This document shows, piece by piece, positions 1,597 to 60,267 of a stretch of 64,000 bases of DNA; the stretch's first letter is position 1; each line of letters starts with the position of its first letter. The translations under genes and the position numbers were made by a program. Origin of the DNA: Leucoraja ocellata (lineage: Eukaryota); assembly GCA_036785375.1 (NCBI GenBank), contig JAWMAR010001001.1, positions 62,001 to 126,000 of the forward strand, read 5' to 3'. The notes below the pieces were generated by a model. That model saw nothing but the letters and a program-made list of their open reading frames with translations. It ran no database searches and was not told where the DNA came from.

Positions 1597-4453
1597 GCTG
1601 TATATGAATGCGCGAAGTATAAGGAACAAAGTGGAGCTTGAGGCTCAGTTAGAAACTGGCAGGTATGATGTTGTGGGAATTACTGAGACATGGCTGCATG
1701 AGGGCCAGGGCTGAGAACTGAATATTCAAGGGTATACCTCCTATCGAAAAGACAGACAGGTGGGCAGGGGGGGGGGGGGTTTCACCATTGGTGAGGAATG
1801 AAAGGGGTGACATTGAAACAGGAGATGTGGAGTCAGTATGCATAGAACTAAGGAATTGTAAGGGTAAAAATACCATAATGGGACTAATCTACAGGCCTCC
1901 AGACAGTAGCCTGAACATAGGGCGCAAGTTGAATCAGGAGTTAAAATTGGCATGTAGCAAAAGTAATGCTGTGGTTGTTATGGCAGATTTCAACATGCAG
2001 GTAGACTGGGAAAATCAGTTTGGTACTGGACCCCAAGAAAGGGACTTTGTAGAGTGCCTTTGTGATGGATTCTTAGAACAGCTTGTATTGGAGCCTACCA
2101 GGGGGAAGGCAATTCTGGATTTAGTGTTATGTAATTAACTGGATTTGATAAAGGATCTCGAGGTTAATGAGCCATTAGGAGGTAGTGACCATAACATGGT
2201 CAGGTTTAATCTACAATTGGAGAGGGAGAAGGGTAGATCGGAGGTGTCAGTTGAATAAAGGGGACTATGGGGCCATGAGGGAGGAGCTGGCCAAAGTTGA
2301 CTGGAAAGATACACTAGCAGGGATGACAGTGGAACAAAAATGGCAGGTGTTTCTAGGAATAATACAGAAGGTGCAGGATCAGTTCATTCTTGGTAGGAAG
2401 AAAGATTCCAAGGGGAGAAAGGTGTGACCATGGTTGACAAGGGACGTCGGGGGCAGTTTGAAAAATAAAGCGAAGAAGAACAATGTAGCAAAGATGAGCG
2501 GGAAGCAAGAGTATTGGGTAATGTTTAAAGAAAAGAAGATAACCAAAAAGACAATACGGGGAGAAAAGATGAGATGCGAAGGTAAGCTAGCCAAGAATAT
2601 AAAGCAGGATAGTAAAAGCTTCTTTAGGTATGTGAAGAGGAAAAAATTAGTTAAGACCAAAGTTGGATCCTTGAAGACCGAAAAAAGTAAATTTATTATG
2701 GGGTCAAGGAAATGGCAGATGAGATGAACAGGTACTTTGGATCTGTCTTCACTAAGGAGGACATAAACAATCTTCCTGATATAGTAGTGGCCAGAGGATC
2801 TGGGGTGACGGAGGAACTGAAGGAAATCCACATTAGGCAGGAAATGGTGTTGGATGGACTGATGGGACTGAAGGCTGATAAATCTCCAGGGCCTGATGGT
2901 CTGCATCCCAGGGTACTTAATGAAGTGGCTCTAGAAATCGTGGATTTATTGGTGATAATTTTATAATGTTCTACAGACTCAGGATCAGTTCCTGTGGATT
3001 GGACAGTAGCTAATGTTGTCCTACTTTTTAAGAAAGGCGGGAGAGAGAAAACAGGGAATTATAGACCAGTTAGCCTTACGTTGGTGGTGGGGAAGATGCT
3101 GGAGTCAATTATAAAAGATGAAATAGCCACACATTTGGATAGCAGTAACAGGATTGGTCCGAGTCAGCATGGATTTACAAAGGGGAAATCATGCTTGACT
3201 AATCTTCTGGAATTTTTTGAAGATGTAACTAGGAAAATGGACAAGGGAGAGCCAGTGGATGTAGTGTACCTGGACTTTCAGAAAGCATTTGATAAGGTCC
3301 CACATAGGAGATTAGTGGGCACAATTAGGGCACATGGTATTGGGAGTAGAGTGTTGACATGGATAGAGAAGTGGTTGGCAGACAGGAAACAAAGAGTAGG
3401 GATTAACGGGACCCTTTCAGAAAGGCAGGCAGTGACTAATGGGGTAGTGCTAGGCTCGGTGCTGGGAACGCAGCTATTTACAATATACATCAATGATTTG
3501 GATGAAGGGATTCAAAGTAACGGTAGCAAATTTGCAGATGACACAAAGCTGGGTGGCAGTGTGAACTGTACGGAGGATGCTATGAGAATGCAGGGTGACT
3601 TGGACAGGTTGGGGGAGTGGGCAGATGCATGGCAGATGAAGTTTAATGCGGATAAATGTGAGGTTATCCACTTTGGTAGCAAAAACAGGAAGGCAGATTA
3701 CTATCTAAATGGTGTCAAGTTAGGAAAAGGGGAAGTACAACGGGATCTGGGGGTCCTTGTTCATCAGTCTATGAAAGTAAGCATGCAGGTACAGCAGGCA
3801 GTGAAGAAAGTAAATGGCATGTTGGCCTTTATAACAAGAGGAATCAAATATAGGAGCAAAGAGGTCCTTCTGCAGTTGTACAGAACCCTAATGAGACCAC
3901 ACCTGGAGTATTGTGTACACTTTTGATCCCCTAATTTGAGGAAGGACATTCTTGCTATTGACAGAGTGTAGCGTAGTATTACAAGGCTAATTCCCGGGAT
4001 GGTGGGACTGTCATATGCTGAGAGAATGGAGCAGCTGGGCTTGTACACTCTGGAGTTTAGAAGGATAAGAGGGGATCTCATTGAAACATATAAGATTGTT
4101 AAGGGTTTGGACACGCTAGAGGCAGGAAACACTTTCCCGATGTTGGAGGCGTCCAGAACCAGGGGCCACAGTTTAAGAATAAGAAGTAAGCCATTTAGAA
4201 CGGAGACGAGGAAACACTTTTTCTCACAGAGAGTGGTGAGACTGCGGAATTCTCTGCCTCAGAGGGCGGTAGAGGCAGGTTCTCTGGATGCTTTCAAGAG
4301 AGAGCTAGATAGGGCTCTTAAATATAGTGGAGTCAGGGGATATGGGGAGAAGGCAGGAACGGGATACTGATTGGGGATGATCAGCCATGATCACATTGAA
4401 TGGCGGTGCTGGCTCGAAGGACCGAATGGCCTACTCCTTCACCTATTGTCTAT
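1597..4453 (+). mobile_element. CR1-clade LINE (HER1-like), near-complete ORF2 (APE endonuclease + RT) and 3' tail; disrupted
   Basis: YMNARSIRNK and GITETWL at the start, GLIYRPP, DFN, KSPGPDGLHPRVL, NYRPVSLT, LDFQKAFDKVPH, KFADDTKL, RPHLEYC, TRGHSLR; in-frame stops and frameshifts split the ORF; CR1-type 3' tail GGCCTACTCC...CCTATTGTCTAT. Confidence 0.95.
2994..3926 (+). pseudogene. CR1 reverse transcriptase domain (longest intact frame, 310 aa)
   Basis: ORF track; QHGF, AFDKV, FADD motifs; flanked by stop codons. Confidence 0.9.
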
Positions 4454-12597: not shown

Positions 12598-14110
12598 TTA
12601 AATTCTTTTTTTTTTATCATCAATCTACACACAATACCCCATAATAAAAAAGCGAAAACACTTATTTAGAAATTTTTGCAAAGTAATTAAAAAGAAATAA
12701 CTGAAATATCACATTCACATAAGTATTCAGACCTTTTACTCAGTACTTTGTTGTGGCACCTTTGGCAGTGATTACAGACCCGAGTCTTATTGGGTATGAC
12801 GCTATGAGCTTGGCACACCTGTATTTGGGTAATTTCTCCCATTCTTCTCTGCAGATCCTCTCAAGCTCTGTCAGGTTGGATGGGGAGCATCGATGCACCG
12901 CTATTTTCAGGTCCCTCCAGAGATGTTCAAATGGGTTCAAGTCCAGGCTCTAGCTGGGCCACTCAAGGACATTCACAGACTTGTCACAAAGCCACTCCTG
13001 CGTTGTCTTGGCTTAGGGTCGTTGTCCTGTTGGAAGGTGAACATCTACTCCAGCTTGAGATCCAGGACCCTCTGGAGCAGGTTTCCATCAAGGATCTTTC
13101 TGTACTTTGCTCGGTTCATCTTTCCCTCGATCCTGACTAGTCCCCCAGTTCCTGCCGTTGAATAACATCCCCACAGCATGATGCTGCCACCACTATGCTT
13201 CACTGTAGGTATGGTATTGGCCAGGTGATGAGCAGTGCCTGGTTTTCTCGAGATGAGACGCTTCGCATTCAGGCCAAACAGTTCAATCTTGGTTTCATCA
13301 GACCAGAGAATCTTGTTTAGGTGCCTTTTGGCAAGCTCCAAGCGGGCTGTCATGTGCTGTTTACCTTCCATCTGGCCACTCCACCATAAAGGCCTGATTG
13401 GTGGAATGCTGCAGATATAGTTGTCCTTCTGGAAGATTCTCCCATCTCCACAGAGGAATGTTGGAGCTCTGCCAGAGTGACCATCGGGTTCTTGGTCACC
13501 TTCCTGAACAAGGCCCTTCTCCCCCGATTGCTCAGTTTGGCCGGGCGGTCAGCTCTATGAAGAGTCCTGAAGGTTCCAAGGTTCTTCCACTTAAGAATGA
13601 CGGAGGTCACTGTGCTCTTCAGGACCTGCAATGCTGCAGAAATTGTTTTATACCCGTCCCCAGATTTGCGTCTCGACACAATCCTGTCTTGGACGTCTAC
13701 GGACAATTCCTTCATCTTCAAGGCTTGGTTTTTGCTCTGACATGCACCGTAAACTGTACGACCTTATATTGACAGGTGTGTGCCTTTCCAAATCATGTCC
13801 AATCAATTTAATTTACCACTGGTGGACTTCAATCGAGTTGTAGAAACATCTCAAGGATAATCAATGCAAACAGAATGAACCTAAGCTCAATTTTGAATGT
13901 CATAGCAAAGGGTCTGAATATTTATGTAAATGTGGTATTTCAGTTATATCTTTTTAATTACTTTGCAAACATTTCTAAACACCTGTTTTTGCTTCTTCAT
14001 TCTGTGGTATTGTGTGATAATAAAAATAATTTAATCCATTTTAAAATAAGGCTGTAACGTAACAAAATGTGGAAAAATTGAAGGGGTTTGAACACTTTCT
14101 GAATGCACTG
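12598..14110 (-). mobile_element. Tc1-family DNA transposon with long (IR/DR-type) TIRs; left TIR truncated
   Basis: Right end reads CAGTGCATTCAGAAAGTGTTCAAACCCC on the minus strand and abuts TA (14111-14112); 12598-12733 is inverted against about 13905-14040; transposase motifs inside. Confidence 0.95.
12740..13721 (-). pseudogene. Tc1 transposase, frameshifted
   Basis: KELSVD..DRIV (paired-like HTH), RPAKLS, LWSDETKIELFG, TVKHSGGSIMLWGC, NPFEHLW, GATTKY spread over three frames. Confidence 0.93.
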
Positions 14111-29803: not shown

Positions 29804-30223
29804 GAAAACAACTCCGAGCATCCATCCAGCCAACTGAGACAAAAGCACACTGGATAGCCACCAAGGGGTCACAGGAGTGGAAGGTAACCTCATCTCCATT
29901 ACACAGCTACATCTCTTCACCAGATAAAAGCTGTCCAGTGGTTGACCTCCCCAGAGGAGCATGGGTGAAGCTCAACAGACTTGGTACTGGAGTTGGGCGT
30001 TTCAATGCCAGTGTGTGGAGATGGGGGCTCCGCCAGAGCCCAGCCTGTGAATGGGGAGCTGAACAAAAGACAGCCAACCATGTCATCTCTGGGTGCCCGC
30101 TCTACCACCCACCAAATGGAACTCAGGGCCTGGCAGACATTGACTCAGAGACAACGACCTGGCTGCTCAACACCCAGCTTGAGATCTAACTGTTCCTTTG
30201 GTTTCATTCGCAAGAAGAAGAAG
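29804..30223 (+). mobile_element. 5'-truncated Ingi/Vingi-like LINE 3' end
   Basis: WVKLNRLGTGVGRFNASVWRWGL..SPACE(W)GAEQKTANHVISGCP zinc-knuckle-type C-terminus; tail CATTCGCAAGAAGAAGAAG; ATAGATA duplicated at 29797-29803 and 30224-30230; splits an older CR1 tail. Confidence 0.75.
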
Positions 30224-31674: not shown

Positions 31675-31813
31675 AGTGGTTCTAAAGCTTGCAAAAAAAG
31701 TGTCTATTGGTTCTAAATCTTGTAAAAAATGTCTATTGGTTCTAAAGCTTGCAAAATGTGTCTCTATTGGTTCTAAAGCTTGCAAAATGTGTCTCTATTG
31801 GTTCTAAAGCTTG
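31675..31813 (+). repeat. Tandem array, 29-31-bp unit (TGTCTATTGGTTCTAAAGCTTGCAAAAAA), left part
   Basis: About 5 units. Confidence 0.95.
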
Positions 31814-32782
31814 CATCAGAAATGTCCTCGTTCTTCAGGGAACGGAGATTCCTCTCCGCCACCATAGATGAAGCTCACAACAGGGCCTCATCCATACCCC
31901 GTAACACTGCTCTCTCTCCCCATCCCCACACTCGCAACAAGGGCAGAGTCCCTCTGGTCCTCACCTTTCACCCCACCAGCCAGCAAATACAACACATAAT
32001 CCTCTGCCATTTCCGCCACCTCCAACGTGACCCCACCACTCGCCACATCTTCCCATCTCCCCCCATGTCTGCCTTCCGCAAAGACCGCTCCCTCCGCAAC
32101 TCCCTTGTCAATTCTTCCCTTCCCTCCCGCACCACTCCCTCCCCGGGTACTTTCCGTTGCAACTGCAAGAAATGCAACACCCGTCCCTTCACCTCCCCCC
32201 TCGACTCCATTCAAGGACCCAAGCAATCGTTCCAGGTGCGACAAAGGTTCACCTGCATCTCCTCCAACCTCATCTACTGCATCCTCTGCTCTAGGTGTCA
32301 GCTGATTTACATCGGGGAGACTAAGCGTAGGTTGGGCGATCGTTTCGCCGAACACCTCCGCTCAGTCCGCAATAACCAACCTGACCTCCCGGTGGCTCAG
32401 CACTTCAACTCCCCCTCCCATTCCCAATCCAACCTCTCTGTCCTGGGTCTCCTTCATTGCCAGAGTGAGCAACAGCGGAAATTGGAGGAACAGCACCTCA
32501 TATTCCGCCTGGGGACCTTGCGTCCGGATGGCATTAATATTGAATTCTCCCAATTTTGCTAGCCCTTACTGTCTCCTCCCCTTCCTTAACCCTTGAGCTG
32601 TCTCCTCCCACCCTCCTATCCGCCCGCCCTTGGGCTCATCCTCCTCCCCTTTTCCTTCCTTCTCCCCCCCCCCCCACCCTCCATCAGTCTGAAGAAGGGT
32701 TTCGGCTCGAAACGTTGCCTATTTCCTTCGCTCCATAAATGCTGCTGCACCCGCTGAGTTTCTCCAGCAATTTTGTGTACCT
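31814..32782 (+). mobile_element. Penelope-like element, 5'-truncated (GIY-YIG endonuclease + 3' end)
   Basis: NLIYCILCSRCQLIYIGETKRRLGDRFAEH and E..LIFRLGT..P.GIN; 3' end carries CTGAAGA...GAAAC. Confidence 0.95.
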
Positions 32783-55898: not shown

Positions 55899-57485
55899 AA
55901 GGTCACACAGAAAAGCTGGAGAAACTCAGCGGGTGCAGCAGCATCTATGGAGCGAAGGAAATAGGCAACGTTTCGGGCCGAAACCCTTCTTCAGACTGAT
56001 CAGAGGTGGGGGTGGGTGGGGACAAGAAAGGGAAAAGGAGGAGTAGCCGGAAGGCTGGAGGGTGGGAGGAGACAGCAGGGGAGCTGAGGAAGGGGAGGAG
56101 ACAGCAAGGACTAACAGAATTGGGAGAAGTCGATGTTCATGCCCCCGGGGTGCAGACTCCCCAAACGGAATATGAGGTGCTGTTCCTCCAATTTCCGGTG
56201 CTGCTCGCTGTGGCCATGGAGGAGACCCAGGACAGAGAGGTCGGAGGCGGAGTGGGAGGGGGAGTTGAAGTGCTGAGCCACCGGGAGGTCAGCTAGGTTA
56301 TTGCGGACCGAGCGGAGGTGTTCGGCGAAACGATCGCCCAACCTCCGCTTGGTCTCACCGATATAGATCTGCTGACATCTAGAACAGCGGACGCAATAGA
56401 TGAGGTTGGAAGAGATGCAGGTAAACCTCTGTCGCACCTGGAACGATTGCTTGGGTCCCTGAACGGAGTTGAGGGGGGAGGTAAAGGGACAAGTGTTGCA
56501 TCTCCTGCGGCCGCAAGGGAAAGTGCCCGGGGAGGGGGTGGACCGAGAGGGAAGGGAAGAATTGACAAGGGAGTTATGGAGGGAGCGGTCTTTGCGGAAG
56601 GCAGATATGGGGGGAGATGGGAAGATGTGGCTAGTAGTGGGGTCACGTTGGAGGTGGCGAAACTGACGGAGGATTATTTTTTGTATGTGATGGCTGGTGG
56701 GGTGAAAGGTGAGGACTAGGGGGACTCGGCCCTTGTTGCGAGTGCGGGGATGGGGAGAGAGAGCAGTGTTGCGGGGTATGGAAGAGACCCTGGTGCGAGC
56801 CTCATTTATGGTGGAGGAGGGGAACCCCCGTTCCCTGAATAGTGAGGACATTTCAGATGTCCTGGTGTGGAACGCCTCATCCGTGGAGCAGATGCGGCGT
56901 AGACGGAGGAATTGGGAGTAGGGGATGGAGTCCTTACAGGGTGGGAAGAAGTGTAGTCCAGATAGCCATGGGAGTCAGTGGGTTTATAGTGTATGTCGGT
57001 TAGAAGTCTATCACCTGCAATGGAGATAGTGAGGTCAAGGAATGGTAGGGAAGTGTCGGAGATGGTCCAGGTGTATTTCAGTGCCGGGTGGAAATTAGTG
57101 GTGAAGTGGATGAAGTCAGTCAGTTGTGTGCGGGTGCAGGAGGTGGCACCAAAGCAGTCGTCGATGTAGCGGAGGTAGAGGTTGGGGATGGGGCCCTGGT
57201 ATGTATTGAACAAGGATTGCTCGACGTAACCTACAAATAGGCAGGCATAGCTGGGGCCCATGCGTGTGCCCATAGCTACGCCTTGTATTTGGAGGAAGTG
57301 GGAGGAGTCGAACTCGAAGTTATTGAGGGTAAGGACCAGCTCCGCTAGGCGGAGGAGAGTGTCAGTGGCTGGGTATGGGTTGCTTCTCTGGTCGAGGAAG
57401 AACCGGAGGGCTGTGAGACCATCGTGGTGGGGGATGGAGGTGTATAGTGATTGGACGTCCATGGTGAAGATGAGGGGGTGAGGGC
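55899..57485 (-). mobile_element. Penelope-like element, 5'-truncated (RT C-terminal part + GIY-YIG + 3' end)
   Basis: MDVQSLYTSIP, GVAMGTRMGP, YLRYIDD, LPFLDL, then a frameshift to NLIYCVRC...IYIGETKR; hammerhead-like core near 55965-55996. Confidence 0.96.
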
Positions 57486-58522
57486 CTCATCAGTTAAAGG
57501 TCCCCTGATACCATCCAGAGCCAACTGCCCTCAGTGCAATTCAGAGCCTGAATAACCAAAGCCTCTGTTAACAGACCCATGAGGACACCATTTCACCTAT
57601 TCTCTGACAGAGGCCCACACACATTAATCTCTTTAATCATTTCTTTCTTATCTTTGTGGAGTGTAAAAAGGGAGAGATAGAAAAAAAGAATGTGTCAGTG
57701 TGAGGGGATGAATGGGCTGACATTTGATGCTAACAACCTCAGCTGTACAGTAGATTTGTAATGAAGACCTAATGCTGTAGAATCACAAATTTTGTAATAT
57801 CACTATTTAGGTAAGGCTTTAATGAGCACATTCTGACTATAGCCTTATCCAATACAGGGATTTTAATACTATTAGTATGCCATTTAAATTGCACTCTGTA
57901 CAAATCAACAACAAAGAAAGAATGATCTACCTTTGGGAGTTAGGTTGCAATAACTTTTCCCTGGACAACTATAGTTTGATGCATTTAATTACTTTAAATC
58001 ATTCATCCTTCAAAGATTACAACGTACGTTTGGAATTACTTCCCTTCAATGCCTTGAGCAATGATTTATCAATATTTCTCAAGCATTATCACTTGTCTGG
58101 GCCTGGAGGCCATGGAACTTGTGATCATTACGAGAATGTTATATTAACAAGTGAAAAAATTCTATGACCTTCACATACCTACTTCAATCACGATAGTGAA
58201 AAATAACAAGGAAGTGCTTTCAACAGCTTCAAATTGATTATGGTAGGGTTTGCTGCTGTGAAATACCTTTCAAAAATTCTTTGAGACAACAATAGAAAAT
58301 CTATATCCTAATCGCTTAGCTTAATTCTGCTTTAAAATTCTAAATCCAAAATACAACTAAAAAGTTGTTTTATAAGTCTTCAATAAAACCTAATGCTGGA
58401 AATACAAAATAAATTATGAAGTATCAGTGTAGGATGTATCATCATTTTAGGGTGAAGCTTTATAGCTAATTTTAAATACAAAGGTGAAATTAAAAAGAAA
58501 GTTTAAATCTGTTTCTTAAAGA

Positions 58523-58675: not shown

Positions 58676-59236
58676 CTATTCTAATGGGCATGCTTTCAGG
58701 TGACAAATCTGTCAATTATCTTATTTAAGGAGCCTGCATGTCTCTATTTAACAATTTTATCCTTCACCAAAGGTTTGGGATCTCAGCCAAAAAAAGGGAA
58801 TGTGCATGAGTTCAGTAGACATAAAGCACGGCCAAGAGAAAGATTATTTCCCTGCAGGTCCAATAAGATTATCGACATTGCTCCTTCGCAGAAGTCTCTG
58901 GCTCGCACATCACTGTGATCTTCGATCGTCCACCCCATTGCTCCAACTAACGGTATGCAAGTTCTGCACCACCGAAGCCCATGAATGGTTCTGCAATTAT
59001 AAATTCTGATTTAGACAACAGCCAAGAAATTGTAGTGTGGTAAAAGTGTCATTGCACAAAGGCGTGGTGGGTTGTGTGGGTTGACGGTGACAGCATTAGA
59101 CTCATTTGAGGTCATTAGGGCCAATGCATCATGTGCAATAAAACAGACCTTGAATATCAAGCACCATTTACACTAACCCTGCACCTCATAGATAAATTGA
59201 GCTTGGAACTCATCATTGACAATGAGTGGAACGTAT

Positions 59237-59289
59237 GGGTGGGAGATTGCAACCTTCACGTGGTCCGCTCTGTTTCGACGAATGCAATC
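59237..59289 (+). ncRNA. Candidate HDV-like self-cleaving ribozyme (minimal P4)
   Basis: P1 GGGTGG/CCGCTC, P2 GATTGCA/TGCAATC, P3 ACC/GGT, L3 TTCACGT and J4/2 CGAA in canonical nested order. Confidence 0.65.
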
Positions 59290-59367
59290 AACCCGGTGTG
59301 CACAATCAAATAAAACAAGTTGTTCTACAACTTTAGGCTGTGCACGCCATACACAAGAAGAAAAAGA
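59237..59367 (+). mobile_element. 131-bp non-autonomous Vingi/Ingi-type retroposon
   Basis: 12-bp TSD AGTGGAA(C/T)GTAT (59225-59236, 59368-59379); tail CATACACAAGAAGAAAAAG resembles the tail at 30205-30223. Confidence 0.8.
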
Positions 59368-60267
59368 AGTGGAATGTATAGATTGGCATCAAAGGAAGAT
59401 GGGCCAAAATGACCCATTACTGTGCTGTATAATTCTATGATTCTCTGAAAATGTTGAAGAAGAAACTCAAGAGTTCTTGACTTCCTGGTAGCAGTTCAGG
59501 TGAGGTCTAAACACCATCCATGCAGAGCTCAGCCTTCCAGTTCAATTCTGCTTCAGTTGCAAGGTATTTTGTGTAGTCTATATTGAAACGTGGGTAGCTG
59601 AGGTAAGGGGTTATGAGGAGGTCTTGTAGAAGGTGGGGGCACATCTGCTCCTCCTGGCTCCACAGGAAATGTTTTAGCACCTGTTTAAAAGTGCCAAAGG
59701 AGGGGATTTGGAGCCAGGTCCATTCACACATATCCTTACACTTCAAATCTGTGCTCCTGGATCTAAGTAAAATGTGAATTCCCATTTCCGTATGCAAAGG
59801 ACCTTTTCACAGATGTCTGAAAAATGTCTCAAAGAAATACTTTAGCCAAAAGATACCTGCACTCATTTTACACTGCAACACAAATGCAAAAAAGGTTTAA
59901 ATTCTCCCCCTTGCAGGGTAGAATTCAAATGATCAATTATTTAAATGGTTAAACTTCAGAGACAGATTACTGTTCTTTTCACAGCTGTTCACAATATGAC
60001 AACACCAGCACAGTTTATCCAGTAAGTAAGACGGCAGACATAAATGAAATAACATTACCTTCAGAGTGGATAGGATTTCACATGATCACCATTGTGAATT
60101 TTCTACAATCTCCTGTGATAAGGAAAAGTTACTGGGAACAACTAAAAAAATATTTATGCTTTCATGGCATGCCAAACTAACTCAGCTCTGTGAGTAAATG
60201 TCACAATTCAGGTCAGCAGTCTGGTGTATGTAAAATACACCAGCATGTAAAATATATCTCAATACAA

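Follow-up and report, generated by a model that had tools for sequence, protein, structure and literature searches.

Short non-autonomous partners of LINEs that begin with a ribozyme are known from trypanosomatids, where NARTc and RIME share the first ~77 nt of the Ingi-group elements L1Tc and ingi, respectively; in the sections of the literature available to us, this segment (Pr77, L1TcRz) is presented as an HDV-like ribozyme that starts at +1 and possesses a single-pair P1.1 (PMC3185411, PMC4035085). Elements in which, as in the one described here, only the 5' and the 3' ends of a LINE are kept also include the Vingi-1_EE derivatives, Bov-A and the R2 SIDEs. The available text of PMC5786205 attributes such bipartite non-autonomous LINEs to the RTE, Ingi, Vingi and R2 clades, and names Vingi as a maker of bipartite derivatives and not as a ribozyme carrier. 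R2 SIDEs are reported, in the parts consulted, to carry a 5' ribozyme (PMC3414825, PMC6765202). A ribozyme-headed, two-ended architecture is already known from NARTc, RIME and the R2 SIDEs. A further point of reference is provided by the minimal HDV-like ribozymes (drz-Mtgn-1, theta), which lack P4 and have a C at the start of J4/2; according to the available sections of PMC10879173, which covered human, mouse and protists among the eukaryotes, they are ~99% confined to phages.

Here we analysed a short repeat on the forward strand of a 64,000-nt stretch of DNA (hereafter the window). We consider it, with a probability of about 0.78, to be a non-autonomous retrotransposon that originated by internal deletion from a ~3-kb Vingi-like LINE and that carries a predicted self-cutting, 54-nt HDV-type head. 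While L1TcRz comprises 77 nt and has P4, the predicted ribozyme of the short element makes do with 54 nt and without P4; and in contrast to NARTc and RIME, the element resides in an animal host, in ~10^4 copies, and its parent has no RNase H. A P4-less fold that the accessible literature reports almost only from phages would head a high-copy animal retrotransposon and be represented by thousands of natural variants.

Boundaries and abundance of the element

An earlier note on this DNA had described a 131-bp unit with an AAG tail, bracketed by a 12-bp target site duplication (TSD) with one mismatch and devoid of tRNA-type A and B boxes. All of this was borne out in the window copy (Table 1), whose two TSD copies are identical at 11/12 positions. 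Within 2 mismatches, our box scan of the element found no A box, and the single B-like word with 1 mismatch lies inside its A-rich middle; ARAGORN detected no tRNA in 9/9 loci. The element thus lacks the Pol III RNA-derived head (tRNA, 5S or 7SL) with A and B boxes that defines a SINE.

The further copies on which the earlier proposal depended exist in the thousands. A search of the window's own assembly (3.44 Gb) yielded 2,420 candidates, with all 40 of those scored matching at 89-100%, and a 21-nt tail word has 3,968 exact genomic occurrences while its reversed control word has 0. From a mean divergence of 6.4%, we estimate the family at ~16,000 copies, duplicated haplotypes included. Nor is the family private to this genome, since three putative RNA contig sets from three other organisms contain it with the same 5' boundary. 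One locus, L002 (G000:C156:3832506-3832636), has flanks identical to those of the window copy, and many loci are present twice in the assembly, which inflates counts.

Copies for the boundary analysis were picked by their tail, so as to avoid selecting for the head, and comprise 90 of the first 100 tail-word matches listed. Nine of them are duplicates; among the 81 independent copies, 68 reach the first three head positions, seven are cut inside the head and six are headless. A TSD was detected in 60 copies (10-12 bp long in 43), and in 48/60 its end falls no more than 1 nt from a single site (+1), so that the conserved 5' boundary held. P1 had been drawn from 59237, the first base after the TSD of the window copy; +1 corresponds to window position 59236 and not to 59237, and is occupied by G in 57/68 full-headed copies and by T in the window copy. 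As is typical of a bipartite non-autonomous LINE, many copies have transposed independently, with TSDs and a tail. The stretch up to the AAG tail measures 129 nt in 35/68 copies. At three positions, five short copies (L119, L158, L162, L176, L185) agree with the parent LINE and not with the main family; they probably represent an older subfamily.

Table 1. Positions of the features of the element and of a related LINE copy in the window
Feature	Position	Strand	Remark
5' copy of the 12-bp TSD	59225..59236	+	Last base T59236 occupies the slot of the family's ribozyme G+1
Whole non-autonomous element	59237..59367	+	10-nt-shorter variant
HDV-like fold without P4, 54 nt	59236..59289	+	
P1, 7 bp	59236-59242 with 59265-59271	+	
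J1/2, 2 nt	59243-59244	+	
P2, 7 bp	59245-59251 with 59283-59289	+	
P3, 3 bp	59252-59254 with 59262-59264	+	
L3, 7 nt	59255-59261	+	
P1.1, single Watson-Crick pair	C59257-G59272	+	
Linker in place of P4, 6 nt	59273-59278	+	
J4/2	59279-59282	+	
Candidate catalytic cytosine (position of HDV C75)	59279	+	C in 65/68 copies and in all five LINE families
Part contributed by the 5' end of Fam4, the Vingi-like parent	59237..59312	+	73/79 columns
Body hairpin, 5' arm, from the LINE 5' UTR just behind the ribozyme	59295..59304	+	
Part from the parent's 3' end (last codons, stop, 3' UTR, tail start)	59320..59362	+	39/41
Body hairpin, 3' arm, from the LINE 3' UTR	59339..59348	+	
AAG-repeat tail	59354..59367	+	
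3' copy of the TSD	59368..59379	+	
Copy of the sister family Fam1 (Vingi-like LINE), truncated at its 5' end	29804..30223	+	Not the parent

With regard to the remainder of the window, no host gene is evident among its 15 ORFs of at least 150 aa. Judged by eye, four apparent fragments of mobile elements lie at 2967-3926, 13045-13548, 31777-32562 and 56111-57486: one of a CR1/L2-type RT, one of a Tc1-like transposase and two of Penelope-like RT/GIY-YIG proteins.

Derivation from a Vingi-like LINE

A fourth LINE family (Fam4) emerged from the 90 tail matches, two of which are its 3' ends. The majority sequence of the short family is identical to Fam4 in 73/79 columns at the 5' end and in 39/41 at the 3' end, the two parts being separated by ~13 nt of A-rich filler, and 29/30 Fam4 3' ends match the last 32-48 nt of the element at 81-95%. 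The head runs directly into the endonuclease frame in one Fam4 copy, and in 3/20 fetched regions (two independent loci) head and tail lie 2,765-3,291 bp apart inside TSDs. The 5' and 3' parts of the short element are consequently the two ends of one autonomous-type LINE, the arrangement that characterizes bipartite derivatives. The 5' ends of Fam4 are more ragged than those of the short family, with 5/12 reaching the first three positions.

Pfam searches with eight ORF pieces detected an RT and, through a weak match, an endonuclease; they revealed RNase H neither in these pieces nor in the 571-aa C-terminal frame of Fam5. This compact architecture (2.8-3.3 kb) of an APE endonuclease and an RT without RNase H corresponds to that of the Vingi clade, which the available text of PMC13708176 describes as having both domains in a single frame; the parent presumably also had a single frame, its copies being frameshifted. 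In an RT tree, four of our families group with 20 unnamed proteins without PF00075, apart from six RNase H-bearing ones (support 100/100, midpoint root). We speak of Vingi-like LINEs, the label being derived from the architecture and from the consulted part of PMC13708176. As none of the 20 Fam4 regions contains an intact parent ORF, the mobiliser is a presumptive one.

The earlier note had proposed mobilisation by Vingi, with the LINE at 29804 as the partner. Its suggestion of a Vingi-type ancestry stands, but the partner was misassigned: the parent is Fam4, whose RT shares 28-43% identity with that of Fam1, the family to which the LINE in the window belongs, and the alleged likeness of the tails amounts to just 17 of the last 20 nt. 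Full-length copies of Fam1 start with a longer, related but different fold and have a different 3' UTR. Two further families from the endonuclease search were likewise rejected as parents, as head and tail differ in both Fam2 and Fam3, a rearranged ~1.8-kb tandem unit.

Several rearranged relatives were encountered. The ribozyme head is inverted relative to the rest of the element in four Fam4 loci (L203, L213, L217, L231) and the tail in two (L267, L273), as might result if part of the element was turned round in the course of insertion. Fam4 has also given rise to other internally deleted derivatives, which differ in their breakpoints (L207, L232 and L138; about 400 bp, 870 bp and <100 bp). 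The rearranged ~1.8-kb units with a Vingi-like endonuclease frame (L100, L102, L104-L108, L110) stand in tandem on many small contigs; some keep the full HDV-like fold and others are without its 3' half. Their head gave an Rfam match to HDV-F-prausnitzii with an E value of 0.019, below the cut-off.

A P4-less HDV-like fold at the 5' end

The first 54 nt can be folded into a nested P2, a 3-bp P3 and P1.1 in the order found in HDV, with covariation in support. P4 is absent, as in the minimal HDV-like subtype. These features match the published descriptor for HDV-like ribozymes, which in the available text includes U..CG in L3 and C-R-R-A in J4/2 (PMC6326823): L3 TTCACGT and J4/2 CGAA of the short family fit it, and J4/2 of the parent (CTAA) and of Fam2 (CCAA) fit only the relaxed form C-N-R-A. 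P1.1 consists of a single pair, a situation known from L1TcRz (PMC3185411) and described as compatible with fast cleavage (PMC13635239) in the sections of these reports at hand.

P2, P3 and the 7-nt L3 are present as the earlier note had drawn them, and C59279 indeed lies at the start of J4/2; by analogy with HDV C75, we infer a catalytic role for it (PMC6326823, available part). Three elements of the original drawing require revision. P1 does not consist of 6 bp from 59237 on; it has 7 bp and starts at 59236, with the family's G+1 facing T59271 in a G-U wobble. One of the two G-U pairs proposed for P1 involves T59269, which is private decay of the window copy (C in 63/68). Finally, the suggested GT-TTCG-AC P4 makes use of G59272, the P1.1 partner of C59257, and of the candidate catalytic C59279, and cannot stand; only 6 nt are located between these two bases.

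The pairings are kept across copies: each P1 pair is retained in 59-64 of the 68 copies, and all 18 pairs together with G+1, the C and the A are intact in 26/68. The window copy, for which the G required at position 1 of the 7-bp P1 is replaced by T, is probably a weak or dead cutter because it lacks G+1 and carries a change in P1.

The HDV descriptor search suggested by the earlier note gave one match in the window, obtained only without the required +1 G, and 0 in 19.2 Mb of shuffled window. Across 1.6 Mb of loci, 35 matches have a C at the catalytic position, two a T (decayed copies) and none an A or G. Applied locus by locus, the strict descriptor failed to detect decayed Fam2-4 copies, and family majorities were therefore used for comparisons between families.

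Short copies decay neutrally, and covariation was consequently taken from relatives. Five Vingi-like LINE families (Fam1-5) start with an HDV-like fold written in different letters; in a parse in which the lengths of J1/2 and the linker were free and chosen to allow pairing, and in which Fam3 is represented by three copies, 90/90 helix cells are paired (permutation mean 64; 0 of 100,000 as good). Two-sided changes affect 15/18 pairs, including P1.1 (C-G to U-A), P1 position 1 being excluded from this count as it reads A in Fam3 and Fam4 from few or truncated copies. The catalytic-site letters (G+1, U..CG in L3, the C at the start of J4/2 and its last A) were kept while the helices turned over. 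Rfam, too, assigns heads of sister families to HDV-type families (CPEB3 and, below the cut-off, HDV-F-prausnitzii). Of all the evidence for a real fold under selection, this covariation carries the most weight. In the literature that we searched, there is no precedent for HDV-like folds heading Vingi-like LINEs devoid of RNase H: in its accessible parts we found no link between Vingi and ribozymes (Repbase, Dfam and patents may already cover Vingi ribozymes or the family), no ribozyme link for Ingi in vertebrates, and, in the literature on shark, skate or SINE, no paper naming Vingi.

A predicted stem that joins the two ends

The body hairpin noted earlier is well supported (z -4.1, with 0 of 200 shuffles as good). 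Its two arms are ~3 kb apart in the parent LINE, and 9 or 10 of the 10 pairs are kept in 51 of the 61 short copies that could be scored (68 in total). Fam5 and Fam1 have complementary stretches, written in different letters, at the two corresponding places, and Fam2 has a weak one. In windows that were narrowed after a first look at the data, 7, 0, 20 and 106 of 1,000 shuffles were as good for Fam4, Fam5, Fam1 and Fam2, respectively; in wider windows these numbers are 4, 37, 77 and 279. We interpret the end stem as a probable recognition structure for which both ends are required. In the accessible literature on bipartite LINEs, no end-to-end stem is mentioned. Pairing of LINE ends, new to the literature searched, would account for the restriction of two-ended derivatives to certain clades, and, if true, the stem would have to be considered as a rule in designing Vingi gene-writing templates, in which both UTRs are used.

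Proposed mechanism and alternative explanations

The reading that we favour builds on direct observations: ends shared with the parent, TSDs, a sharp 5' boundary and a fold conserved over five LINE families. According to it, an internal deletion of a ~3-kb Vingi-like LINE would have left the first ~80 and the last ~41 bases. A host or internal Pol II transcript would read through an intact copy, and the ribozyme would cut co-transcriptionally just 5' of the first G of the element, thereby setting its 5' end. The arms from the 5' UTR and the 3' UTR would then pair into a stem that adjoins the CATACGC-AAG end and probably serves as the binding structure for the LINE protein, which would explain why both ends have been kept. 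The protein of the parent LINE would finally copy the freed RNA, target-primed reverse transcription generating the 10-12-bp TSDs.

RNA data from an organism carrying the family, ~6% of one poly(A) RNA-seq run, yielded 602 reads for one copy and 759 for another, both orientations being represented. Reads across the 5' junction with varied upstream sequence numbered 231 and at least 226 in two mappings, and no pile-up of molecule starts was found anywhere on the two copies. Such reads are expected from passenger copies in host transcripts and neither support nor exclude cleavage; a poly(A) library is poorly suited here.

The most serious competitor of self-cleavage retains the same ancestry and regards the P4-less head as a relic, or as a binding or protection module that cuts poorly, with an internal promoter setting the 5' end. 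The missing pile-up of starts and the many uncut junction reads suit this explanation, as does the replacement of P4 by only 6 nt, and a sharp 5' end fits an internal promoter equally well. Precedents are available: Pr77 acts as a promoter as well as a ribozyme and drives transcripts that start at +1 (PMC3383444, PMC3185411), and 5' ends are protected by the fold of the R2 ribozyme (PMC13708176), as stated in the consulted sections of these reports. We nevertheless judge it unlikely: the catalytic-site letters have been kept across families despite the turnover of the helices, P4-less HDV-like ribozymes are active in vitro according to the available text of PMC10879173, and most of the poly(A) reads derive from passenger copies that have decayed and lie in either orientation. 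Still less credible is a mere chance reading of a G/C-rich 5' UTR. Rfam has no ribozyme match for the short head, be it in the window copy or in two intact copies, and the nested minimum free energy of the 53-nt head is no better than that of shuffles (z +1.5); nested folding, however, cannot model a pseudoknot, and the descriptor null of 0 in 19.2 Mb, the covariation over five families and the exact position at the 5' end refute a chance fold unless the family parses are misaligned.

The earlier note had regarded the repeat as a SINE-like family. Its multi-copy nature and the lack of a tRNA head are confirmed, but the label is not, and bipartite non-autonomous LINE describes it better. Its size and copy number, the 17 of its last 20 nt that recur in the LINE at 29804-30223, and a B-box-like word (2 mismatches) at the linker would be in keeping with a genuine Pol III SINE, or with one mobilised by Fam1, the LINE family present in the window. 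We consider this highly improbable, as there is neither a tRNA nor an A box, the parent LINE itself starts with this head, which leads straight into the endonuclease frame, and the tail matches another family, Fam4, over 41-43 nt; identification of the Fam4 parent has largely refuted it. Cross-mobilisation by the sister family Fam1 may nevertheless contribute.

CPEB3-type heads and a wider proposal

The mammalian CPEB3 ribozyme (RF00622) resembles the short element in that its Rfam consensus has the same L3, J4/2 and G+1; it differs in being located in a host intron and in possessing P4, and its Rfam model does not pick up the short element. Among 59 scored candidates, 56 exceed the RF00622 cut-off (best 64.7 bits versus 35), and in 17/30 loci, several of them duplicates, an endonuclease frame follows the match. 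Among them is Fam5 (L283-L312 in G000, e.g., C522:768985-769069 and C82:979131), a young 3.13-kb LINE family with copies ~95-97% alike; the six copies examined have AAG tails as well as TSDs next to the first G and measure 3.13-3.15 kb, except for one that an insertion has lengthened to 3.99 kb.

Comparison with the Rfam consensus, which alone stands for the mammalian side, suggests that the mammalian CPEB3 ribozyme may descend from such a Vingi-like element. As Fam5 matches well above the RF00622 cut-off, the origin of the CPEB3 ribozyme becomes testable. In the accessible literature we found no work linking it to a Vingi-like LINE, and a term search of PMC8233481, in the portion available, gave no mention of origin or transposons. 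More broadly, Vingi-like elements might generally be ribozyme-headed with paired ends, the short element being their smallest working form (a 54-nt P4-less ribozyme plus end stem, ~16,000-fold in an animal) and the CPEB3 ribozyme a domesticated 5' end; for this wider proposal we see the odds as evenly balanced.

The CPEB3-like heads of eight loci (L288, L293, L297, L299, L302, L309, L325, L326) differ from that of Fam5 and fall into two or more types. Five of the eight were fetched as longer regions, and in none of these does an endonuclease frame follow the head. By eye, some of the eight look closer to the Rfam consensus than Fam5 does.
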